Assembly: GCA_964276515.1 (NCBI GenBank)
Contig: OZ193909.1
Location: 20,646,001-20,710,000, forward strand
Length of the DNA: 64,000 nucleotides
From: Gordius albopunctatus
Lineage: Eukaryota
Direction: 5' to 3'
Below are positions 31,265 through 64,000 of this stretch, in pieces. The notes under the pieces were generated by a model. That model ran no database searches and was not told where the DNA came from. It saw only the letters and a program-made list of their open reading frames with translations. Position numbers and translations under genes: made by a program. How positions within the stretch are numbered: the first letter of the stretch is position 1; each line of letters begins with the position of its first letter.

Positions 31265-33025
31265 CAAACACTACCCACGACGGTCCCAAGTCCGTGTCCA
31301 AAAAGTGGAGGGTTGGCGTCAGGTCGGAAACTGGCTATAAATACCAACTCCGAAATTATGATAGTTTCACACAAGATTTTAAAAGAGAAAGCTAGGGCGT
31401 CCTCCACAAACTACGCGCACTGCATACCCCGCCCGTTGAAAAATACACTAGGGTTACTGCCCAACTCACAACGCAGGTGGTTAAGGAAATTAGTTGTGGA
31501 AAGAATGCGAATAACGTGCTGGAATGTGGGAATGTTAACGGGGAAGAGCATCGAGGTCGCACAAATGCTAAAAAGAAGAAAGGTACACATCGCCTGACTG
31601 CAATCGACTAGGTGTAACGAAACAAAGCTCGAGAGTTAGGAAGCGAATCGTTCAAAAACAAGGTGGTGGAACAAATCCTACCATCGAATATATCATACGC
31701 AAAAATACCATGTTTAGTATGAAAATTTACATACTTAAAGACCTTTTGATATTATCAAATTTCGTTTTTATTAAAGCTTAAGATGGGATTTACGGTATAA
31801 ATTAATTTTATTATGTTTGCTAATTAATTGGCTTCCATTTTTCGTAAAAGAAGAGACTTTTCATAAAATAGTGTCCAATATTAATGGGCTAATGTAGGTG
31901 AAGATTGCAGATAGAGGTGGCATCCTAACCTTTATGTGCGTGTATGGTCCCCAAATTGGGTGTATAAAATTCGAGAAAGACATATTCTTCGATTCATTGA
32001 AAAAGGAAATACAAGGAATCGGACAGGAAGAAAGGCTAATCATTGGAGTGGATTTCAATGCTCACATAGTGAAAGATCGACTCGGGTATAAACGCAATCA
32101 TGGAGGCTACGGACATAAGAAGAGGAAATTATTTAATTATCCCAAGCATATGGCATGGCAATCTTTAACACCTATTTTCAAACCGCGAAGATCAACCTAT
32201 AGAAGTGGAAAGCATTTTAGTCAAATCGACTATTTGCTTATACGGCAAAGGATCTTCTGGAGTATCAAGGATTGCAAAGTAATAGGGGGAGAAGAAATCG
32301 CCAGGCAACATCGTCACCTTGTTATGGCTCTTAACAGAAGAGTATTTCCCCAAGGTAGAAAGGTCTATGAACCTCAAATTCGATACGAAAGGCTAAAGGA
32401 TACATCGACGAACGAAAAATACCATCAAAAAGTCTCCTTAAACTTGGGTGCAAGGAAGTTGCAAACGGACGTAGACGACGATTGGGAGACGCTATCTAAG
32501 GACATTAAGAAAACAGCGATTCGTGTTCTAGGACAGACCAAAGGAGGCAAAGCTATGAATAGGGAACTATGGTGGTGGGATCAATCGGTTAAAGATTTCA
32601 TCGAAAGAAAGAAAAATCTATATAGACGGTGGCCTAAATCAAAAAAGTCGGAGGATTATCAAGAGTACAGGTACGCAAAAAGGGCCGCAAACAATGCCGT
32701 TGCAAAAGCGAAGAATGCCGCGTACACCGAGATGGCAAACAAACTGGATCATAAAGGGGGCGATAGGCTTATGTACAAATTGGCCAAGATAAGGGAGAAG
32801 AAAAGTCGCGATGTCGGAGTTCTTAAAATAGTCAAAAGCGAAAAGGGAAAGAAGTGATGGAAAGGTGGAAAGGATATTTTAAGCAACTTAGAATATTGCA
32901 AATGACAACGAATCCATTCCCGATATTGAGCTTAACATAAGTATGGTCGAACTCTTCCATGAGGAGTTTGAAGTTAGGACACAAATGAACAAGATACAAA
33001 AGGAAAAGAAATGGCCTGGATGGAA
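31265..33025 (+). mobile_element. RTE LINE, 5' portion (APE domain), interrupted and truncated
   Basis: RITCWNVGMLTGK, CVYGPQIG, GVDFNAHI, SQIDYLL, WWWDQSVK. Confidence 0.9.
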
Positions 33026-33390
33026 ATCATAAATTTCATAACAATAAATACTAAAATTTATTATAGATGACGCTAATGTTTTTTGATAATAACATGATAC
33101 CTCCACAAGTATGTATGTGTTCATAAAAAATTTAACTATTTACTTTAAATTTATTTCACCGAACATAATATGTTATGAGGTCTTGTTTGGTGATATTAGC
33201 ATAATATAAATTTTGTTGAATTAATTGAATGTTTTATTATTATTTATTAAATACACTTATGCTTCCCGAAAATAATCGTAATATTATTCCACGAAAATAT
33301 CATGCTTTAATATCTAATAGCAAAAAAAAAACAAATTTTTTATTGCATTTAAAAACTAGTTAAAAACATTTTTCTTTAAGATTATTTCTA

Positions 33391-33749
33391 TACCCTAACA
33401 ATGCCCACGTTTATTTTGTTCCTCTACGGTTTTTAAACCGCCCATCAAAATATAATGTAACTCATTTTTCTATTTAATATCACTATAAATCTGCGTGATA
33501 CAAATATCAAAATTTTAATTTTGAATAAAAAATTTCGCTTAATTTTCTCAAATTAATTGTAAATCTATTTATTTTAAACACGAGAGTATTTTTAATCTGA
33601 CATTATTGAAATATTAAATGATATATTATTTGTTAAGCAGATTCATAGTGATATAAAATCGGAAAATGGGTTTAAACTTTGGTTTAATGGGCAGTGTAAA
33701 AATCGTAGAGATTTTTCCAGCTAAGTAAAAGTGGTCATAGTTAGAGTAT
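33391..33749. mobile_element. Degenerate MITE with ~60-bp imperfect inverted ends
   Basis: TACCCTAACAATGCCCAC..CTCTACGGTTTTTAAACCGCCCATCAAA is mirrored by TTTAATGGGCAGTGTAAAAATCGTAGAG..GTGGTCATAGTTAGAGTA. Confidence 0.5.
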
Positions 33750-34715
33750 AAAATATTTTTAAATAAAAATGCCTTCCAGTAACAAAATTATAATCGATTG
33801 GTATTGCCATACGTCATTGTCTTTGATCGATCAGCTTGTTTTGGGCAGTGCGATCCGGATGTGTGGGACGCCAATCCCATTAAGTACATCAATATACTCC
33901 AGCACAAGGCTTCTACCTATATTTATCTTAATTTAATCATTATCACAACGTTATCAAATCCGATAATAACCTTATTTCTCCTCGAGGTAGTAATTAAAAA
34001 CTATGAATTGCATACAAATCTTATTGCCCCCCCCCCCAAGACCCAACAAACATCCCGTTTGAAGAATTATGTTTAGTCCTAAAAAACTTCTATCCCCCCA
34101 AAATTAATACAATCGTGCAGCGCTACAAATTCAATAAGCTTTTCCAAATGGAAGATGAAACCATCTAAAGATTATTTTCGAAAATTTAATTAAAAAAATG
34201 AAATATGTATATTATCTTTTCAGGTGTTTATAAGTGTCTTAAAATATTTTATGCAACTGTACTAATTTTGGCAATGAAGAGAGGGGAAGGTGGAGGAATT
34301 TTGCACTTTCCCCCACCCCTTGGATACGCGCCTGTTGCATAGTGTTTATAAAATTATTTTGCAATTTTAAAGTCAAAATATCTTTTAAAGTGTAATGTTT
34401 ATGAAAAATGAGGATGTAATGACTTTTATTATCTGTCAGTGTTGGAAAAATATCCATTTGAACAAGTGTTTTGAGCCATAACTATTTTAGTCACTAAAAT
34501 AGTGAAAGACGTTAGTAGCCCAAAACCTGAGATTAGGGTTTAGTTAATTTTTTGAGGCATTTGGGCTGAGAAAAATTTTATTATGTAAAAGGATTTTTGG
34601 AAGGACAAGGCTCTAGTGTAATAGATACATAATGTGAGATGAATTAAAAGAATACGTTTTTAGTGCTAAGTTTCGGCAAGGTAAAACGAGTAAAACAACA
34701 TGAAGATTTTTTTTC

Positions 34716-37700
34716 CTATAGCAGTTTGTCACATTTAGTGGTCAGCTCCTTCAAGTAGGTTCTTAATGTATTCCTGCACTTACACCAGCTTCGGTTTAGC
34801 TCGTACCTTCTCAAGTCCATATCAATTTTATGCTTACATGTCACTTTAGGTCTCCCTCTCTTTCGCTTACCTTCGACTTGCACTTCCTTGATACGATATG
34901 CCAAGTGACTTTCCTCCCGTCTCTCCAAATGGCCATACCATCTCAATATTCTAACCACCAAATTTCTCTGAATTGGAACTACATTTAGTTTATCCCTTAT
35001 GTCCTGATTCCTTATATGGTCCTTTTTGCTTATTCGAAAGATCCATCTTAACATTCGCATCCTTTGCTCCTCTTTTGCCCTAATTGCCCAGGTTTCTGCT
35101 CCATACAATACCGTGGGTACAATAACGGTGTTATATAACCTTTCTTTCAATTTGAGTGGTATGTGCTTGTCACATAGGACACCACTCAACTCCCTGAATT
35201 TTAGTCAGCCTGCGTTTATTCTTGCCTTAATTTCGTTTTCCACACCTCCATCACATTGTAGCCTAGAGCCAAGATATTTAAATTCTTTCCTGGTGCTTAA
35301 ACACCAGTCATCTATTTGCAGGTGTGTTTCTCTGTATTCATTCCTGACTCCGAGCATACATATTCAGTTTTATTTCAGTTGACCCTAAGGCCTTTGCTTT
35401 CAATTCGTTCCATCCACACTTTTACCTGCTCTGCTAATTCCACGTTTGAGACTGCGCACAGGACGATATCATCCGCAAAGAGCATTGCCCAAGGTGATTC
35501 GCGTTTCAGGTCCTTCGTTATCGAATCCATTATTGTTATGAAGACCAATGGACTTAGGGCCGATCCTTGATGCACACCGACATTTATACTGAATCCCTTT
35601 GATCTGGATGTCCGAACTTAGGTTTTTGGGTTTCTATACATATTCTTTATTAACATTATATAAGCGTCGGGTACACCATTGGAACTCAGGCTATCCCATA
35701 TCAACTGCCTTGGGACTTTATCAAAAGCTTTCTCAAGATCGATGGAACACATGTGAAGATCCTTTTTTTCCTTATATAATTCCATAAGTCTCCTAAGATC
35801 ATGTATTGCATCTGAAGTCGACTTTCAAGGTATGAACCCAAATTGTCGTTCATCTATTGATATTATTTTTCGGATTCTAGCTTCTATAACCTTTTCACAC
35901 ACCTTCATTAAGTGACTGGTTAACTTTATCCCTCGATAGTTGATGCATTCTTGTACATCTCCCTTCAATTAACCTTTTCACACACCTTCATTAAGTGACT
36001 GGTTAACTTTATCCCTCGATAGTTGTTGCATTCTTGTACATCTCCCTTCAATTTATAGATAGGTATAACATAGCTTTCCCGCCACTCATCGGCATCATAC
36101 CACTTGCAAGTATTTTGTTAAACAGCTTTGCAAGTAGATGTACACCTAAGGGTCCTAGCATTTTCAAAGCTTCCATAGGTATATTATCAGGTCCCACCGC
36201 TCCACCCATGGTCATCTTTTTAACCACCTGGTCAACCTCTTCCTCTGTCACTTCTAACTATGGGTCATATTCATAGTTCTTGCTTTCGCAGTGGTCCGAA
36301 AACACATTTTCACTGTTTAATAATTCTTTATAGTGTTCTTCCCAACGATCTATGATTTGATGGTCCAGAGTTAGACTGATGCTTTCCTTGCTCTTTATAT
36401 ATTTCACGTTTACAACATCCTTTGAGTTCCTTGCTCTGGTCTTTGCGATTTTATAGATCATTCTTTCAACTTCTTTACTAGTTAATTTAGCATTCAAATT
36501 TTGGTAGACTTCTGTTTTAGCCTTGGCTACACAACGTTTTGCCTCGTTTTTAGCTTTCGCATATGTCAATCGTTCCTCATTTCTGTTGCCTGACCATAAT
36601 TTGTAAAGCTTTTTTTTCAACTTGACCAGGCGTTGCACGTCTTCGTTCCGCCACTATGTCTCCTTATCTTTTTGTATACCTGGTTTACCTTCTCCTAGAA
36701 CACATCTCGCTACTGATCGTACCCTGTTGGCTATGTTATTCCACATATCGTTAGCATTCTGCTGATTATCTCTTTGCAGTCATTCAACTATTTTATCATT
36801 GTAAATATCTTTCAATTTTGGTAGCCGGAACCATTTAATTTTCCCATTTAATCTCTTCAGCTTTTGTGTTTTCGCCTTGGAGATGGTATAGTCCATCACA
36901 ACAAGTCTATGCTGGGCTGCAATAGCTTCACCTGGTATCACCTTACAATCTCGTACATTCTTTAATTACTTTCTTGATATTAGGAGAAAGTCAATCTACG
37001 AAGATCCATTTCCACTTTTGTTCGTTATTTGGTGATTTATATTCTTTTTGAAGAAGGTATTTGTGATGGCCAAATCAAATGCTACGGCTATTTTCAATAT
37101 TTCGTCGCCTTCATCGTTTCTCGCTTTGCATCCATTTCCACCATGGTACCGTTCAAATCCTTTCTTTGTTTTGCCTACGTGTCCATTCATATCCGTGCCA
37201 ATTATAACTATCTCAGCTCTGGGTATCATTAGCAGCGTTTCGTCTAATTCTTCCCGAAAGTCCTCCTTTTCTTCATCTGTGCATCCTGCTTGCGGAGCAT
37301 ATCCGGAAATTACATTAATCATTTGACCTTCTATGCATAGTTTCAACATCAAGAGTCGCCCACTTTTTCTTTTTACCTCAATAACTTTATCTTGTAAATG
37401 GGAAGCTAATATGATTGCCACGCCATTTTTATTCGTTTCTAGGCCATTGAAGTAAAGTTTATAGCCTTCACCTATCATTCTTGCTTTTGCGCCTTTCCAT
37501 CTTGTTTCCTGTATACACGCTATATCAACCCGTCGCTTGCTGAGGGTGTCACCAACTTCTCGGCATTTTGCAGTCATTGCTCCAACATTTCGCGAGCCCA
37601 TTCTCAATCTCGTCCTTAGCAAACTAGTTTCTTTAATTACATCCGTTTGCGGAAGATGTAGTGACGCTCGTTGACTTCTCACGTGATACGGGTGCCTACC

Positions 37701-37870
37701 ATGCGCATCGTTTACGGAGGACGCCCTAGCGCTTTCATTATTACGACCTTTCATAGTATACATTTTGGTTTATATGGAATGAGGGAGTATTGATATCCCG
37801 ACCTTCCAAGCCTGACCGAACTATGTCAGATTTTGGCGCTTGACTACCTACTATTCTTTATGATGCAGCC
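34716..37870 (-). mobile_element. Near full-length degenerate RTE LINE (APE + RT)
   Basis: DIACIQETRWKG, YAPQAG, GPDNIP, HQGSALSP, LFADDIV, LYGAETW, LRWYGHL. Contains stops, frameshifts and an ~82-bp internal tandem duplication at ~35888-36052. Confidence 0.95.
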
Positions 37871-41547: not shown

Positions 41548-44307
41548 TGTTACGCCTATTTTACTTTATTAGAAATCAATTCACGTTACAAGGAACACGC
41601 GCTCGAAGAAAACAAACGCGATCCAACACACGATAATATAAAATAAGGCGATAGGAAAGACTATATCACGTGTTGTTTATTTTTACTCCACCAGCAAAAT
41701 AGAACTTAAGCGTACATTACACATCGTCAATTATCCTCTACACTCTAGGTAGCTTGGGGCCTGTCGTACCCGGCGCGGGTATCTAACCTCAGGCGAGGCA
41801 TTGTTAAGCTCCGGAGCCATGGGAATGGCATTGTGTTCACCCGCTTCTGTAGCGGAATTGTCATTGAGAATTATTGGCGACTAAACACCGTTGGTAAGGG
41901 GCTTGCATTTATTGGCTCGTTTGCAATGAGACTCAATCGCGCGAGTGTATCCCGGTCCGGCCATCCATTTTTATATCCCACCATTCTCCAGTCCAATATT
42001 ATCCTTGGTCTCAACTGATCCAAATGTCGATGGTGGCTTTTCCCCAGGGCCCTAACTATGTAAGAGCGACTACCAAATTTGGCTGTTATAGATCCTTCTA
42101 GTTCTACCCATTTGTTGGGCCCCAAGAACATGCGTACCCACACATTTTCTCCTACACCGAACGTGTGCGATTTTCCGCTCTACTTCCAATGTTGCTCGGT
42201 TCGAATTTTCCGTTTTAACATTCCTTCTGCAGGAGTTATTCCAGTCGCTGGGTGGATAGTCGCCTTGTAATTTTCCAGGAATAAGCTTAAACCAATTTCG
42301 GAATTGTTGCGCACCACCGCCTCCTTTGCTAGCCGCACGTACCTTTCTGCCAATCGACGCGGGGTGATAGGGTGCTGACCAGTCTTGTTTTATCCCCCTA
42401 CGTCTACAAAATCTTCGGATCTCCTGGCTTCTAAACTGACCGAACCTGGCGAACACCTCCGCCAGCTTTGTTATTATGGTTGAGGTTGCCGTACCTTCTT
42501 ATTTTAAAATCTCCAACCATTTTGTTCCGTTAGCCACCAAGACTAAATACGACTTGCCGCGCTCCGGCCCAAACAAATCCACGTGTACCTGGCTCCAAGG
42601 CCTAAAGTTTTGCTCACTTTTGATCAACGGCGCCCTTTTTGCTGCCGCGGCCGTGTAGTTGCATGCCATGCAACATTTTGCTAGGTTTGCGATATCCTGA
42701 ATAAGTGTCGACTACCATACATATTGATCTGTCACATGTTGCATTCGCTTAACGCCCACGTGGCCCTTGTGTAATCGTTGTAGCATCGCCTACCTTAATC
42801 TGGCTGGAAAAAGGACCCGTCGTCTCTTGTAGTAAATAACATCATTGGACTCGTGTAACTTCCGCAGGTACTTTTCGTAGAGGCGCATAGTACCCACGAC
42901 TACTGTGCCATTCTGCGTCCCCCTTATCCATTCTTTGAGATCCCGTAACGTCTCGTCGCAGGCGGTGTACTGTAGTATAACGTCAAGTGAGATAAACGAG
43001 TTCGCGGTATTCTCTAGTACCTCTTCGGTAACTTGGAAAGCCTGCTCAATTATATCGTCATTAAGCCACTTGTCCAGTTCTTCACCACCTCCCTCCTCCA
43101 TGCTAAGGGTACTCGCCGTTCTGGGATAAACACCTGTTTGATTCCGTTTTCCCCTGGCCCGTCGACTTCAATGTCCCTCCCAGCTTGCGGATTTGCCCCC
43201 TTCTGCACCGTCACCCGTCGAACCATATCTTCGAAGTAACTATTGGTTCGTTCCAAGTAAAGGCGGTCCCTTTACATCCGCCACCAACAGCGGCAGGCGC
43301 TTTCGGGTGGAACCTAGACAGGCCTCGGCTGTTACGTCTCTGATAATCTTTATCTCCTTGCCGCCGAACGCATATACGGAAGGTCTCGGGTTTGTTTGCA
43401 CCGGTAAGCGCTCCTTCCACTAGTTGGCCTGCACGATTGTAATGGTAGACCCGTGTCCATAAGAAAAGTTATCAAGGTGTTATTAACATATAAATCAATA
43501 GTCAAAATATCTAATGCATGGCCGAACCTGGTCATACTCGGGCCCGTCCTCGTTGCGTCGACTGTAAATGCCTCGTCCACTGGCTGGTGCATTGTCCTTA
43601 GGCCTTCGCCGATTGCCTCTCGACCTAGGGCGATCTCCACGGCCTTGTCCCATTTGAGATCCCTCTCAGCCATCAACGAAGCTTGCACCGTTGGGTCGTG
43701 GAGTCCTAGAATCATCAGCTGATTGACCATCCTGGCCGATAATTCCCCAGGCTGAAAACCGCAGTCTTTTGATGGCTCCTTTAGCCTGCGAATATATCGC
43801 ATGAGTTCTTCCTCCGGCATTTGTCGAATATTTCTAAAAATAAATCTTTGCGCAAGCGGGCAGGTCTGCAATTTAGACGCTTTCTTTACTCTACTGGTCG
43901 CTTCTTCGAACAACCACTTGGAAGGGTTATCTGGGTACGCGTCGTCCGCGATAACCCTAAACGCCTCCGCCGATAAAGAACTTAGCAGCCTGCACGTTTT
44001 CTGGGTATCGGATAACGTCCCGGATTGTGCCTTAATGTTGGCCTCGAATTGAATTAGAAATGTTTCAATAGAATCTCCCACTTTGAATAATTCAATGTCC
44101 TTTCTAACGATTATTGAATTAGAAATGCTTCAATAGAATCTCCCCCTCTGAATAATTCCATGTCTTTTCTAACGATTATGGAATTAGAAATGCTTCAATA
44201 GAATCTCCCCCTCTGAATAATTCCCCGTAGGTTCTAACGATCCTACTCATGACACCAATGTTACGTCTATTTTACTTTATTAGAAATCAATTCACGTTAC
44301 AAGGAAC
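41548..44307 (-). mobile_element. Gypsy LTR retrotransposon, internally deleted (gag-PR-IN, no RT/RNase H)
   Basis: LTR end TGTTACGYCTATTTTACTTTATTAGAAATC repeated at 41548 and 44259. PBS TGGTGTCA(T)GA next to the 5' LTR (~44245-44257). Gag ORF 43350-44081, protease FLMDTG, integrase H-x-GH..CxxC and SAPYHPAS. The 5' LTR is cut by a MITE at 44308. Confidence 0.9.
44049..44240. repeat. ~62-bp tandem triplication at the Gypsy gag start
   Basis: AATTAGAAATGYTTCAATAGAATCTCC...GAATAATTC..TTCTAACGAT occurs three times. Confidence 0.85.
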
Positions 44308-55078: not shown

Positions 55079-55375
55079 TCTATATATATAAAGTAAAGTC
55101 TATGTATGTATGTAAGGGCTAAATTCTGAAACTACCGGCCCGATTCGCGTGAAAATTTAACCATAGATGCCCAGGGCGGCCAGGGGTAAAATAGCTTTTT
55201 CAGAATCCTAAAATTCCTTTTAGTTTTAAAAATATGGGCTTTTAGTTTTAAAAAATGGCTTAATTCTGAAACTACCGGCCCGATTCGCGCGAAAATTTAG
55301 CCGTAGATGCCCAGGGCGGCCAGGGGTAAAATAGCTTTTTCAGATTCCTAAAATACCTTTTCGTTTTAAAAATAT
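55079..55375 (+). mobile_element. Helitron-like 5' end with an internal direct repeat (~140-bp period)
   Basis: TCTATATATATAAA start, GTAT microsatellite, then GGCTWAATTCTGAAACTACCGGCCCGATTCGCG repeated at ~55117 and ~55257. Confidence 0.55.
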
Positions 55376-57526: not shown

Positions 57527-58768
57527 ATGTTGTTGGGTTACAGACAAGATCCACTTTATGAATCAGTTCATAAATCTGTTAAATGTTATTATACCTTTAT
57601 CCTACCATTTCAATCTTTGTTAGGTTTGATGTGCGATGCCTTAATTTTATATACTAAGAAGCGATATCCATTGTTGTTCGTTCACCCTCTTTACCTTATC
57701 ATAATACAAATAGTTTGGGCTAATTTGGGATCAAATATCTGCCTAATTATACAAAGTTTGGATTACATCGGACGACACAAAATTCCAGTGTGGTGGAGTC
57801 ATTCAAATCCCTGGATTTATTACATATTTCACACAAATTATTACCTAGTCGAATGTTTTACCCGAGCCTCTTTATTTTTTTTAATATTCGTATCTATTAA
57901 TTTGACCATCATGCTGGTTGCGCCATTGAAATATCGTGTGATAGTCACAAGGAAACGAATTATAATTGCCACTCTTTGCAGCTATCTACTAATTATGATC
58001 CTTAATTTTCCATCGATTTTTCAAGCTCACGTGGTTTTGTTATCCTCACAAGATTATTATTTCGGGCGACGTAACAATGCGACTGAAAATTCGTTGAGCT
58101 TAGAAGACCATCCTCACCTTAATACAACGGAGTTTATTAATTATGATGGGATTTACCGAAAGCCGTGGAAGGAAATTACGTTATCGGCATTTCCATTATG
58201 TACTATTATAATTTCGTGCGCAATCAACATTATGCTTTTGAAACACAAGGTGAAGTGTCAAAGATCTGAAAGCGATACAAGTTGCAAAACTGTAAGTACC
58301 AGTTTGCAAAATAATGATTCTTCAACGACTTCATTAAGTGTTAAAGGGAAAGGTGTTAAGCATTTGATTAACTTAACGAGGAATGATATAAACCTTAAAT
58401 TAATATTCCATATGGCCCCATGCAATTTAAAGAATATCCCGTGTGCAGGTGTAAGAAAGAGCCGTGGATTGGATGATAAGAAGATAAGAACCTATATTTT
58501 ACTTTCCCTATTTATCGTTGTCTTGAATGCTATCCTAATTACACCGAACTGTGTTGTAACTTGGCTCAAAGTTAATGAAGCAACCTTGAAAGTTCCAATT
58601 TCCAGCCTGACATTATTTTATGTGTTGAGCAAAGTGTCTAACGTTTTATACAACCTCGTTAGTTTCATAAACTTTTTGATCCTAATAGTCAGCAATAATT
58701 CATTTCGGATTTTTTTGTTTAGAGAATTGTGTCCAAATCACCTGTTTAACAGATTAAAGCGTTTTTAA
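57527..58768 (+). CDS. Intronless 7TM class A-like GPCR (peptide/chemosensory receptor-like)
   Basis: 413-aa ORF with seven hydrophobic segments, ..VAPLKYRVIVTRKR after TM3 and SFINFLILIVSNNSFR at TM7/helix 8. Confidence 0.8.
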   Translation: MLLGYRQDPLYESVHKSVKCYYTFILPFQSLLGLMCDALILYTKKRYPLLFVHPLYLIIIQIVWANLGSNICLIIQSLDYIGRHKIPVWWSHSNPWIYYIFHTNYYLVECFTRASLFFLIFVSINLTIMLVAPLKYRVIVTRKRIIIATLCSYLLIMILNFPSIFQAHVVLLSSQDYYFGRRNNATENSLSLEDHPHLNTTEFINYDGIYRKPWKEITLSAFPLCTIIISCAINIMLLKHKVKCQRSESDTSCKTVSTSLQNNDSSTTSLSVKGKGVKHLINLTRNDINLKLIFHMAPCNLKNIPCAGVRKSRGLDDKKIRTYILLSLFIVVLNAILITPNCVVTWLKVNEATLKVPISSLTLFYVLSKVSNVLYNLVSFINFLILIVSNNSFRIFLFRELCPNHLFNRLKRF

Positions 58769-60619
58769 AAATGTTAACGAAATGTTATATATATTTGTAA
58801 ATATCTTTATTCGTTAATTCCAACTTTTTTATACGATATTGTATGCAGGCGGGTAGCCAGGATTTTCTCTCGGAAGGAAAGAGGGGGGGCGGGAATTTCC
58901 AAAAAATTTTATAACATTTTTATTTCAACATCAAAATTATAAAATCTGGTATAAAACATGAAAAAGTCATTATAAATAATTAACTTGGTCAGTTACGTTG
59001 CACAAATATAAACTTTAGATATAAAATATTTTTTTTATAAAAAATCTGTGGGGGCCCCGTCATTTACGCCATTATTTGTATGTGATTTCATTTTTTTTTA
59101 TTTAGTATAAATAAACCTTAATGTATTTATAAGTCGTTTTAGTATATTTTCATTCAATTACATCTTATTAATTCATTTGCAATCGTCCATCGGACTTTTG
59201 TAAATTCACGAGAATTGTTTTTTTAAATGATGTTTTATAGAAATAGATCAAATTATAATTTAGGCGCAGTAATATAATTTTCGTTTGAAATCTCTACGAC
59301 TTGTAAATAAGACTTCTCTTGCTTGAGTTAACTTCAAGTTTCATACTTTAGGATAGCTTTAGCTATGTATGTGCTAATCTTATTTAATCATCGTTTTAGG
59401 GGCATAAGTGTAAACTGTTAAAGAAGTTCTAGAAAATTTGAAAACGTTATTGTATTGAAATTTATAAATTTTAATGTATAATAAAAGGGTGCGTGAAAAG
59501 GTTGTTAGGGCTTTTGCAGATGTAGCATTCCACTATATGACCTGATGCACACATCGTGTACAAGAATGATGAAAGCAACGACGCCTACTTGTAGTACCGA
59601 ACGCCATAATTTTTTTCATATTATTACTAAGCAAAAAACTTGAGTAGATATTTATTGGCTAAAATTATTATTAATTAGAAGGAAAGCACTTGCAACTACA
59701 TCTTTTGATGGCTTGATAAAACGTGTGTTAATCAAAATGATATGTTGTTGTTATACAACTGATTATACCAAATTTCAAATCATTTGTGTTGTAACCGCAA
59801 ACTACTTATTTGCCTATTATGTCATCCACTGGCGCCGCCACTATTTGACATCTCTTATTTTACCGTTAAAATAAGGTATAAACGTATCTTTTAGTGTAAG
59901 CGAAGAGATTATTTTGGTACATTTCGTAATCCTATTACATACACATACACCCAACTCTATTTTAATCCTAATTTGTAAGTGATAATTCATCATTTTAGAA
60001 AACGCTATTAAACAATTTAAGATTTAAAAAAATGCAATTTCTAATAAAAAGGCATCGCAAAAGTATACTAATTTCAGAGGCTCGGGTCGGGTGTACTTTT
60101 ACCTACTTTCACATTTTGTTGGTGCCAACAAACCTTTTTTTCGAGAAAAGAAATCCATATACATTTACCAAATTCCTATTATTAAAGGGAAAAAAAATTA
60201 TTGAAAAATTAATATAGCTGTTTTTTGGCACATGATTTAATGAAAGAGATTTAATAATCAATAAATTGCATTTTATAACCACAAAACTTTATTAGTTTAT
60301 TCAGTATAAAGTCAAAAATTTATGTGAATGCCAAAAGGAATATATTTTAAGCACTGATAAATATGTTACAAATAAAATTTTGGCCTTTTAAAAACAATAA
60401 CCCCACTATTGTTAACACTGTTAGCTTTAAAATTCATGGAGTTTGAAAACTGATTCACTTTTAAATCTAGTAGTTTGTTATAAGAGAAGGATATCGACAT
60501 TTTAAATACATATTTCTACTCTTAATAAAAATGATATAATCCATACATTGCAATAATAAGGATCAATAATCTATAAACAATTGTTATGTTTTAATTACTC
60601 TGTTGGGACTGGGAATCTT

Positions 60620-61112
60620 TATTTACTAGGTTCATGTATTGACATGTGTCGTAGATATGCTGCTGACGTAGGTGAATACTTGACTTCAAAATTCCCTTGA
60701 ACCACTACTCAGTGACCTTGGGTATCGGGTGGTTGACCCAATTAACCTCTTTACAATGGTACACATGGTCTAATATTTTTCGGTCGTCTGAAGCGTTGAA
60801 GGGAAATAGGTCGTAACCAAAAGTGATCGTGAGAAAGGAGCGCTTAGTAATCAACGCATGTCGGTGTCCGAAGTCACATAGTAGGCAGTCATGTTAAGGT
60901 GACGAAGGTACACCGCATAAGCCGTCATGACCCATCTCTGATTACATATTCCCACCGCCCTGTATGTATGCTACCATGTCTGACATCAAACAATATATAA
61001 TCGCACGTATTAAAATCAGCTATGTTATAAACCCCTGAAGCCCCGCCTGCATGTCGTAAGTAGCCTGGTATATTGGATAATTCCTCTATTGCCCCGGCGC
61101 GGGAGCTACGTC
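60620..61112 (-). pseudogene. Degenerate, truncated N-terminal part of totivirus RdRp ORF (EVE)
   Basis: The -1 frame after the capsid reads *RSSRAGAIEELSNIPGYLRH..ADFNTCDYILFDV. Across frameshifts it continues AYAVYLRHLNMTAYYV, FGYDLFPFNASDDRKILDHVY and TSAAYLRHMSIHE, which resemble toti-like Pol N-terminal motifs. No GDD core is present. Confidence 0.7.
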
Positions 61113-63599
61113 AAAATTCTCATTTTGTAAGTCGTATGTCGCCCTAATGTAGGCTGTATACTGAGCTGTTCCTGTGTCAGGTACAGTAGTAAGTGCATTG
61201 TGAGTAGATCTGGACCCCTCACTGCTTGGTGGTATGGGGCGATCTTTATAGTTGTTACCCTCTAATAAGTATACCGCGTTGCGCTGCCAGCAATACCACA
61301 AATCCACGTTTTCGGCTAGCGGGGGTTGAGTCCCAAAGCAGTGTTCCCGTTCTTGTTGGTCTATGACAACGTAGGATAACATCTCGACGTTGTCAGTATA
61401 TGCTGGAGGGTGTGCAATCTCAGTCTTGTTTGGTGCCCACATAGTGAGCGATGTATTGTTACCTGGTGCGTAATAGCTTATGTCGAAGCCTTGCCATCGC
61501 CCGACCACCCCGTGCGCCCACAAGTCGTAATAATCAATACCAATGCATAGTCTACCTTTGTACGGCTTCCTCGCAAGCGCTCCGCGAATAAAGACGGTGT
61601 ACAGTGGGGTTCCTTTGAGTAGACTACCTTCGAGCCCGGCAATCATGGGGGTGCCACTCGGTTGAGGAAGCTTCTTAAAAACGAGGGTTCTGGTACAGGA
61701 GTTATATTCATACCCGTACGATGTGAAGTCGGCACTGGTCGAAGTTAGTTGTAGCCCATCGTTAATCACATTGTCGAGGCCCTTCTCTATCATGGGGTCA
61801 GGGCACCGGAAGATGCTAGTCCTGGCTGTCCTACCAGTGACAGCAGTGATAAGGGCTGTGGCACGATACTGTTCCTGAATTCCTGAAATAATATCAAGTT
61901 CTTTTTGTAAAAGTAGGTGTGCGGAGCACTGCCTATTTATCATGTAAATATATTCTCCGTGACACCATGCTGCATTTATAAAGTTTGACACAGTGTACTG
62001 AGTCAGTAGACTTGTATTTAATCCATAGAAGAAGTTTATGGCATCTTGACTTATACTGACATGGTCACACCTCGCTAATTGGGCCACCACTGCTCCGCGC
62101 ATACCTAGTGTGGGTAGACTGAGCATTTTGGTAATCCTGGGCCAGAATCGTCCCTCAACTGAGTCATGCATGGGTTGGGCTATGAACCACATAGCCTGTT
62201 GCATCCCGTGCATGAAATCTTCGTACACGCGGTGATTTATTGTAAGCTTCTCGATCACCGAGATAATTAATTGCTGCGTTACATTGACCTCAAACTGATC
62301 CGGGATTATGGGACAATTGACAGCCCCTATAATGTCGGTCGTTCGCTTACCGTTTGGTATTGGTTCAATAAGTACAATATCCTGGTCTATAAAGAATGGT
62401 GTTGACCTTGTATTGCCTTTAAGTGCATAAGCAAGCACAGCTACTTGTTGATGGCTGAACCCCCTTAAGTTGACGTAGTATTTGTAGTCAACAAGGGTCT
62501 TGTAGGCTGTCTCGTCCTGAGGCCAAATTGTTTTGATTGGGCCGAAAAGTGACGTCGACGGGTCATAAGTGTATTTGAATCGGTTAGCATCAATCGGGAA
62601 GTAACCGTTTGTGAATCCATAATCGATACCCCCTGCTGTCCGATCAATTACTGTATGGCAGTCTTCATATATAGGGTATGCCCAACACGATGTGTGTAGT
62701 GTGAGGGGCAGGAGCATCGGTGATGCGATTAGGTTATGGTATGTCGGATCAACTGGTAATCCGTCAGCTAGTCGGCCTGTGTCGAAGTACTCACGTTCAA
62801 TAGCTGTAGGCATGTACCGATATGGTAGGCCATCTGCTGCCGGTTGTTCTTCTGGTTTTAGTGCGCGCTCGTGAGCTCGCACTCTGTTCAGGTAACCATC
62901 AAGGTGGTTCTTGATTGTAGCTGCGTGTTGGTTCCAAATCGAGTGGGTAGCTGGGATGGGTCCAAACTGCAGAACTATGATTGGTGTGAGTTCTGTCACA
63001 ATAAGCGAGTTTTGGAGGTGGAGACAGGTGTTGAGAAACGGGATACTCAACTGGGTTTCGACATTATGCCTAGAGTTTTTTGAAAACATGTCTAGCAGGT
63101 AAACCTGTTGTATTAACATGGTGAATAGTGCAGAGTAGTTTTCATATGCGTCACGCATAAATGTGTCGTTGAAAAATTTATCAAGATACGGATCTCGATG
63201 ATAGTATTCTGTGGTTATGGCACGCAACAACCCGAAATTGGAGTTGGTACTGAGATTGGCCTTCCAGATGCATGGTGGGCCATAGATGTTAACGTTTGTA
63301 ACTGTCATGACTGGGATTCGCTCTTCTAGCCTTCTGTTGAGTACGTCGTTATACTCAGATTTGACTTCATACCTCCCGCCTTTTTTAGCGAGGTCAAGAT
63401 TTCCAACTTTCTCCAAGTCTCCAGACCGATCCGCTTTATAACATAGACCGAACGTTGCCTGTCCCTTAGCTACTCCGCAGGCCTGTAAGTCAAGGTCTAC
63501 CCTGATAAGGGCCGACCCATCAACAAAGAAGTTTGGTCTGACATTGTGAGGCACAAAACCTTTAACGTTGAAAGGATCAAATATATAGGGGTTTGACAT
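61086..63599 (-). CDS. Totivirus (ScV-L-A-like) major capsid protein, endogenous viral element, 837 aa
   Basis: Collinear matches to recalled L-A Gag: YENYSALF~YDNHVALL, PIYEDCH~PMYHDGH, YVNLRGFS..TRSTPFFID~YLDVRPLT..HRRTNLAID, NHRVYEDF..QPMHDSVEGRFW..LSLPTLG~HNRLYNQF..KPVPNCAEGYAW..VNIPKFG, DLWAHGVVGRWQGFD~EAWKLAWALRVAGYD. Intronless and GC-rich against AT-rich flanks. First ATG at 63599 in ACCATG context; the ORF track starts at an upstream GTG. Confidence 0.9.
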   Translation of the reverse strand: MSNPYIFDPFNVKGFVPHNVRPNFFVDGSALIRVDLDLQACGVAKGQATFGLCYKADRSGDLEKVGNLDLAKKGGRYEVKSEYNDVLNRRLEERIPVMTVTNVNIYGPPCIWKANLSTNSNFGLLRAITTEYYHRDPYLDKFFNDTFMRDAYENYSALFTMLIQQVYLLDMFSKNSRHNVETQLSIPFLNTCLHLQNSLIVTELTPIIVLQFGPIPATHSIWNQHAATIKNHLDGYLNRVRAHERALKPEEQPAADGLPYRYMPTAIEREYFDTGRLADGLPVDPTYHNLIASPMLLPLTLHTSCWAYPIYEDCHTVIDRTAGGIDYGFTNGYFPIDANRFKYTYDPSTSLFGPIKTIWPQDETAYKTLVDYKYYVNLRGFSHQQVAVLAYALKGNTRSTPFFIDQDIVLIEPIPNGKRTTDIIGAVNCPIIPDQFEVNVTQQLIISVIEKLTINHRVYEDFMHGMQQAMWFIAQPMHDSVEGRFWPRITKMLSLPTLGMRGAVVAQLARCDHVSISQDAINFFYGLNTSLLTQYTVSNFINAAWCHGEYIYMINRQCSAHLLLQKELDIISGIQEQYRATALITAVTGRTARTSIFRCPDPMIEKGLDNVINDGLQLTSTSADFTSYGYEYNSCTRTLVFKKLPQPSGTPMIAGLEGSLLKGTPLYTVFIRGALARKPYKGRLCIGIDYYDLWAHGVVGRWQGFDISYYAPGNNTSLTMWAPNKTEIAHPPAYTDNVEMLSYVVIDQQEREHCFGTQPPLAENVDLWYCWQRNAVYLLEGNNYKDRPIPPSSEGSRSTHNALTTVPDTGTAQYTAYIRATYDLQNENFDVAPAPGQ

Positions 63600-64000
63600 G
63601 GTAGGAGTAAATTGAGAAGTCGAATAATTATCTGGCAAGTTGGGGAGGAGCAAATATTTTCCCAACCTTCTCGTCAACACGTTGAGTTATCGACGCTAGT
63701 TTTGGAAAACTTTTTTTCTTATGTTTCCGCGATAACCGCGTTTTTGATACGACTATACATACTCTGTTAATGCGGATGCGTCGTACGCATTCCGATGCGT
63801 TTATCTTCTTTGGTTTGTCCCCCTAAAAAATATTTTTTTAACAAGTTTGTTTATTTATTTGTAGAAATAAACACTATAAATAAAAACAGACATAGAATAA
63901 AAAGAATAATATATTATGTATACATAAATATTTATCCGAGTTTGAAGGCTGGTCAGAGATCACCCAGGGATTTGAAATTCTATTTAGCAATATTAGGATG

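Follow-up and report, generated by a model that had tools for sequence, protein, structure and literature searches.

A 64-kb window, the whole stretch of DNA analysed here, carries an endogenous viral element, non-retroviral in type, that is joined to host DNA and exists in more than one copy. Judged from its sequence, the main open reading frame (ORF) of this element encodes an L-A-type totivirus capsid, and it is followed by a broken remnant of the viral polymerase (Pol). Co-option of the capsid by the host is plausible on the sequence features described below.

Identity of the capsid gene

The capsid ORF occupies the minus strand from an ATG at 63599 to a stop at 61086 and its 2,514 nt translate into 837 residues with no internal stop (Table 1). 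The GC content of the 61–63 kb interval is 0.47–0.48, compared with about 0.29–0.33 in the flanks. Translation and base composition thus confirm the 2,514-nt capsid frame without stops in a GC-rich insert described in the original prediction. The capsid had also been called intact, which holds for the unbroken ORF but not for the C-terminal tail, as this comprises 9 residues against 28–53 in 47 of 48 homologs; by this comparison the protein falls slightly short of full length. The shortening, of ~100 nt, is probably an in-frame loss that keeps the virus's own stop in frame, because the position of the capsid stop relative to Pol is that of the virus of L001.

Table 1 Features of the viral element, in window coordinates.
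Feature	Position	Strand	Evidence or remarks
L-A-type (Totivirus) major capsid protein, intact 837-aa ORF	61086..63599	-	translation, homologs, profile, predicted fold
CpG-rich upstream region, candidate promoter/5' UTR	63611..63824	-	214 nt; CpG o/e; identity in organism B
Decapping (cap-snatching) loop, residues 311-315	62655..62669	-	alignment; loop description in PMC13756089
Dead frameshift region	61086..61119	-	non-canonical heptamer; -1 frame shut by stop just downstream
Pol remnant	60622..61128	-	Pol profile HMM, four blocks, three frames
AATAAA hexamer, possible poly(A) signal	60618..60623	-	sits where viral homology ends; sole one in remnant

A full HMMER protein search returned 56 homologs at 22–40% identity with E-values up to 0.001; the full-length ones measure about 790–860 aa and are 24–33% identical to the window capsid, while the best by E-value is 33% identical. 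Records were looked up for 30 of the 56 and 10 bear a virus name: seven are totivirus coat proteins from rusts or powdery mildews, two come from plant-associated totiviruses and one from a viral metagenome; no named virus derived from an animal occurs among these 30. No totivirus cognate to the host animal was found, the best homolog by E-value standing at that 33%. PF09220 (LA-virus_coat) is matched by 37 of the 50 members of the capsid alignment, although the window protein itself has no direct Pfam match, and the alignment profile recovers the solved L-A coat 1m1c with an E-value of 3.3e-54 and L-BC with 5e-13, in agreement with the earlier assignment to an integrated totivirus with a Gag-type capsid. 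Pfam, PDB sequence, word-based protein and ESM Atlas searches made directly with the window protein gave no match. Scans of viral and metagenome contigs with the same protein, or with the proteins P0002 and P0003, also gave none. All these blanks are weak evidence, as one word-based search overlooked known relatives.

The window capsid is predicted to adopt the L-A capsid fold. An alignment-based AF2 model reaches a pLDDT of 83.8 and leans on the homolog alignment, single-sequence folding giving a pLDDT of 31. In Foldseek comparisons the L-A capsid 1m1c (E 6.6e-20) and the L-BC capsid are the top solved structures (TMq 0.52), and the leading predicted structures are mildew totivirus capsids (Podosphaera totivirus F CP, TMq 0.76). 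A rapidly computed tree with 45 rows, from which five rows below 590 aa were excluded and in which long branches are placed unsurely, puts the window capsid on a long branch (2.02) within a 28-row clade that includes the rust and mildew viruses (SH-aLRT 99). Conservation is lower than in most close homologs, which match 88–98% of the 85 conserved alignment columns, the window protein matching 69 (81%). In the decapping loop the Tyr, the Asp and the terminal His are retained and two of the five positions are changed, one of them near-invariant among the homologs; both changed positions depart from the three viral loop forms set out in the accessible text of PMC13756089.

Genomic setting and copies in two organisms

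Public contigs from six runs (X1–X6), representing two organisms (A and B) and two studies, were compared with the window. X1 and X2 derive from organism A and from one study, which may be connected with the material behind the window (the X1 flanks are 0.6% different), and they cover 30 of 30 bins across 56–64 kb. Both boundaries of the element are bridged by X1 contigs, the 3' one at 60342–60659 with 2 differences and the upstream one at 63729–64000 with none, so that assembled sequence spans the junctions on which the original prediction had staked the integration. A second copy in organism A is represented by X1 pieces that are 11.6% diverged from the window at the same places, and a copy about 12% diverged indicates that the insertion is not young. 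One X1 contig continues from the upstream region into 165 nt of AT-rich flank, and a duplication of the locus after insertion is thereby suggested. Organism B holds a close copy, covered by an X4 contig over 61676–62782 that is 6.3% diverged (~94% identical) and by two pieces in X5. X3 and X6 provide nearly no cover of the ORF, and absence cannot be read from them because the filter discards records.

The CpG-rich region upstream of the ORF has a CpG o/e of 1.73 against 0.93 for the whole window. Its 214 nt, compared with about 35–70 nt for the 5' leaders of relatives in the contig starts inspected, recur at 89% identity in all four organism B runs and also in further organism A copies. At the opposite end of the element the AATAAA hexamer is a possible poly(A) signal, for which DNA this rich in AT makes the motif weak evidence. 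The capsid copy of organism B, at 6.3% from the window, is closer than the neighbouring GPCR gene (10.5%) and the upstream region (11.2%), although it looks frameshifted. Its closeness could reflect gene conversion or introgression, or the GPCR contig compared might be a paralog. In X1, X3 and X6 there are 1.7-kb contigs that match the upstream region at 63611–63885 only and extend 1.2–1.4 kb beyond it on the ORF side, where they are less than 80% alike. Contigs of 1.5–1.6 kb in X3 and X4 share just 41 nt of the ORF (62197–62237). Both sets may be more distant members of the family.

About 2 kb from the viral element, a 413-aa intronless class A GPCR-like ORF lies at 57527–58768 on the plus strand. 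It has an Atlas score of 0.97 with 7tm_1/Srw-type clusters from molluscs, nematodes and flatworms and no match in a Pfam search. As this neighbouring ORF groups with animal class A GPCRs, the host is most simply taken to be an animal. The stretches 31898–37769 and 42073–44129 contain what is left, in decayed form, of LINE-like elements (endonuclease domain) and Gypsy-like elements (gag, integrase), with every Pfam match weak and under the cut-off. A short and probably MITE-like repeat at 58840–59050 occurs in very high copy number, in hundreds of contigs in each of X1, X2, X4 and X5, and a 140-nt unit is tandemly duplicated at 55117–55375 (1.9 copies, 94% matches). Neither a target-site duplication nor a terminal repeat was conspicuous, a profile scan of the 64 kb revealed no second capsid or Pol piece, and an Rfam search gave no match.

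Polymerase decay and possible selection on the capsid frame

A Pol profile HMM, built from the Pol ORFs of 11 of 12 near-complete IMG/VR viral contigs of the same clade as the window capsid, matches the ~500 nt that follow the capsid in four colinear blocks that are spread over three frames, and therefore require three frameshifts, and that include in-frame stops. The match stops at model position 203 of 853, before the GDD near 575. The best block has an E-value of 5.7e-6 in a local search, and the blocks range from 0.001 to 0.62 in a window-wide search. One X1 contig across the remnant displays a one-base indel relative to the window, so that one of the Pol lesions may reflect misassembly or variation between haplotypes. 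The decay of Pol that had been predicted is thus upheld in its blocks, frames, stops and early end, with a question over that single lesion. The distance from the heptamer to the capsid stop is 31 nt in the window, in contrast to 124–160 nt in nine of nine relatives examined. The element possesses neither a working −1 frameshift nor a complete Pol with GDD, as a replicating totivirus would, and so is incapable of replication.

The capsid ORF displays no lesion in 2,514 nt while the Pol remnant accumulates about 5 in 490 nt. Assuming both parts to be equally old, the Pol lesion density predicts ~26 lesions in the ORF, and the contrast highlighted in the original prediction is, for parts of the same age, far beyond chance. 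If only nonsense changes are counted, the probability of the ORF still being open is 0.12, 0.04 or 0.005 at a lineage divergence of 2%, 3% or 5%, respectively. Among the gapped ORF pieces listed for organism A the net changes are −3, −6 and −15 nt, so that the frame is kept in three of three; apart from the window ORF, no copy was covered over its entire length. The close copy of organism B has net changes of −2 nt (X4) and −4 nt (X5) and is probably broken, gaps near the alignment ends being the other possibility. The 28 amino-acid changes relative to the X4 copy fall in less conserved columns (conservation 0.29 vs 0.39 at random, P 0.003, a post-hoc comparison). Their BLOSUM scores are not significantly conservative (P 0.12), and the lack of stop-making differences among the 40 listed is not significant alone (P 0.26).

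Over codons 492–620, the 9 synonymous and 31 non-synonymous differences from the X4 copy give a dN/dS of 1.07–1.25 (CI 0.49–2.93), an estimate that covers 129 of the 837 codons and rests on the 40 listed of the 70 X4-contig differences, in the more divergent part. Divergence from the X4 copy is indeed uneven along the gene, with 40 differences in 385 nt and 30 in the other 720 nt. The 24 differences common to X4 and the second X1 copy give a dN/dS of 1.35–1.57, and because these two share the non-synonymous excess it is not confined to the branch of organism B. In the near-identical X1 contig three of three differences are synonymous, as are 7 of 16 among all ORF differences listed. Plain purifying selection, as originally proposed, is thus not shown: a dN/dS near 1 had been set beforehand as the result that would speak against it, and this is the value observed over the measurable codons. 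What stands of the proposal is the frame kept in the three organism A pieces and the sparing of conserved columns; the dN/dS and the apparently frameshifted copy of organism B do not agree with it. The pattern would fit a frame and core that are kept with fast change elsewhere, or relaxed selection, and the data do not separate the two.

Possible origin and role of the capsid gene

Totivirus capsid paleogenes, cp1 and cp2 of Debaryomyces hansenii, were reportedly described by Taylor and Bruenn in 2009. By analogy with such genes, we tentatively favour the explanation that the capsid gene has been kept by its animal host and that its product would be a counterfeit capsid, poisoning the assembly of related dsRNA viruses. 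A host retroelement, to judge from the LINE and Gypsy remnants present in the window, would probably have reverse-transcribed a 3'-truncated viral transcript and inserted it. The locus would then have been duplicated together with its flank and the frameshift signal lost, with selection preserving the reading frame and conserved core and allowing rapid change at variable sites. The putative promoter in the CpG-rich upstream region, perhaps with the AATAAA that closes the remnant, would give a capsid-only mRNA. Its product would co-assemble with viral Gag into dead particles, the negative complementation demonstrated for D. hansenii cp1. The cp1 protein cures L-A in this way without forming particles, and L-A N-terminal fragments of at least 475 aa cure as well (PMC6166632).

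The retention in the window protein of the predicted fold and of the loop His is consistent with a counterfeit capsid. Against it stand the dN/dS of ~1, the probably broken copy of organism B, the retention of just 69 of the 85 conserved columns and the lack of a cognate virus among those found; moreover, yeast viruses with 27% identity showed no capsid interference with each other (PMC6166632). The STORM capsid copies evolve fast under relaxed selection with their ORFs and fold kept (PMC13756089). A bolder extension, which we regard as doubtful, is that a fungal-type L-A capsid has become a small fast-evolving animal gene family with a conserved upstream region, whose protein would assemble and decap as a restriction factor or an RNA-handling particle, and that such viruses infected the germ line.

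The dN/dS of about 1, the apparent frameshift in organism B, the loss of near-invariant residues and the uneven divergence of the X4 copy would all be expected of a neutral EVE, or of one formerly selected and now relaxed, whose ORF is open by chance or through recent gene conversion between copies. Toti-like EVEs are also common, with 5,686 in 593 of 1,188 arthropod genomes in the accessible text of PMC10636211. This explanation is nevertheless somewhat unlikely, as indels keep the frame in three of three pieces, conserved columns are spared, the lesion contrast with the adjoining Pol is strong and the insertion, with a second copy about 12% diverged, is not young. The open 837-codon frame beside a broken Pol, together with the frame-keeping indels, would also be left unexplained if the locus acted solely at the RNA level by supplying piRNA or siRNA directed at totiviruses. 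Such a role is established for arthropod EVEs (PMC6166632, in the part available) and the window is rich in TE remnants, but here it seems decidedly improbable.

A domesticated capsid could alternatively perform a non-antiviral cellular job, either forming T=1 particles that carry RNA or decapping mRNA via the loop His. The whole fold is predicted at high confidence, the loop Tyr, Asp and His are kept, and planthopper development involves a toti-like EVE derived from a CP (PMC10636211). The decapping loop, however, is altered at two of five positions, the available text of PMC6166632 describes the yeast paleogenes cp1 and cp2 as lacking particles, and rapid change at variable sites would fit conflict better than housekeeping; we consider such a job unlikely. 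An assembly artefact, in which an RNA virus or fungal DNA was joined to an animal contig, is by now hardly credible and largely refuted. It could draw on the fungal or plant-associated nature of the named relatives and on X1 and X2 coming from one study with the kind of data not on record. In contrast, both boundaries are bridged, pieces of the ORF and of the upstream region occur in a second organism from a different study, and a replicating virus would not fit a dN/dS near 1 and a broken Pol.

Co-opted totivirus EVEs have already been published, as is evident from the accessible portions of PMC6166632, PMC13756089 and PMC10636211, on which the following comparisons also draw. The D. hansenii cp1/cp2 genes (Warner et al. 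2018, PMC6166632) are likewise long intact nuclear L-A-type capsid ORFs in more than one copy, but reside in a yeast that holds a complete viral genome copy. In contrast, the window locus has an animal host, a capsid of the rust/mildew clade, a Pol that is broken and cut short and a role that is proposed only, by analogy. STORM TLC1–4 of Scheffersomyces (PMC13756089) are totivirus capsid genes that have similarly been duplicated and that combine unbroken ORFs with fast and relaxed evolution and a retained fold; TLC4 retains the decapping loop and STORM moves between species. They form a tandem array of four in yeasts and their transcription is demonstrated, whereas the window holds no second copy, its host is an animal and its loop is changed at two positions. 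NlToEVE14 of planthoppers (PMC10636211) is likewise a toti-like EVE that comes from a capsid and has stayed protein-coding in an animal, as is probable for the window capsid, but it is a fragment that forms the C-terminal end of a host ORF with several exons and is kin to an insect toti-like virus, while the window capsid is stand-alone, intronless, near-whole and L-A-type. The EVEs of an ant (PMC6540820) and an isopod (PMC4231630) belong to arthropod toti-like clades, by the accessible text of both papers.

The capsids of the rust and mildew totiviruses (Phakopsora pachyrhizi mycovirus, Erysiphales associated totiviruses 4/5/6, Puccinia striiformis totivirus 4 and Uromyces fabae virus) and L-A Gag (1m1c) resemble the window locus in length (~800–830 aa), 28–30% identity, Gag-then-Pol order and stop position. 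The window locus differs from these totiviruses in its long branch, shortened tail, lost frameshift signal and broken Pol, and in being DNA-borne. The novelty lies in a capsid of the fungal type that is present whole in an animal. The accessible literature yielded no account of an animal retaining a complete gene for an L-A-type capsid, although subscription papers and the supplementary lists of 5,686 EVEs in PMC10636211 may hold cases.

Antiviral use of a dsRNA-virus capsid at the protein level has been shown in yeast, and the tested animal toti-like co-option that was found is a fragment in a host gene. The window locus, an ORF kept open with fast protein evolution, offers a directly testable case. 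If neutral, it would still be a host-range fossil for a virus group in which none of the 30 homologs with consulted records is a named virus of an animal. If the proposed explanation is true, an animal germ line would have been entered by totiviruses of the rust/mildew clade or of one sister to it, and if a whole L-A-type capsid has been kept open in an animal, counterfeit-capsid immunity would extend to animals.
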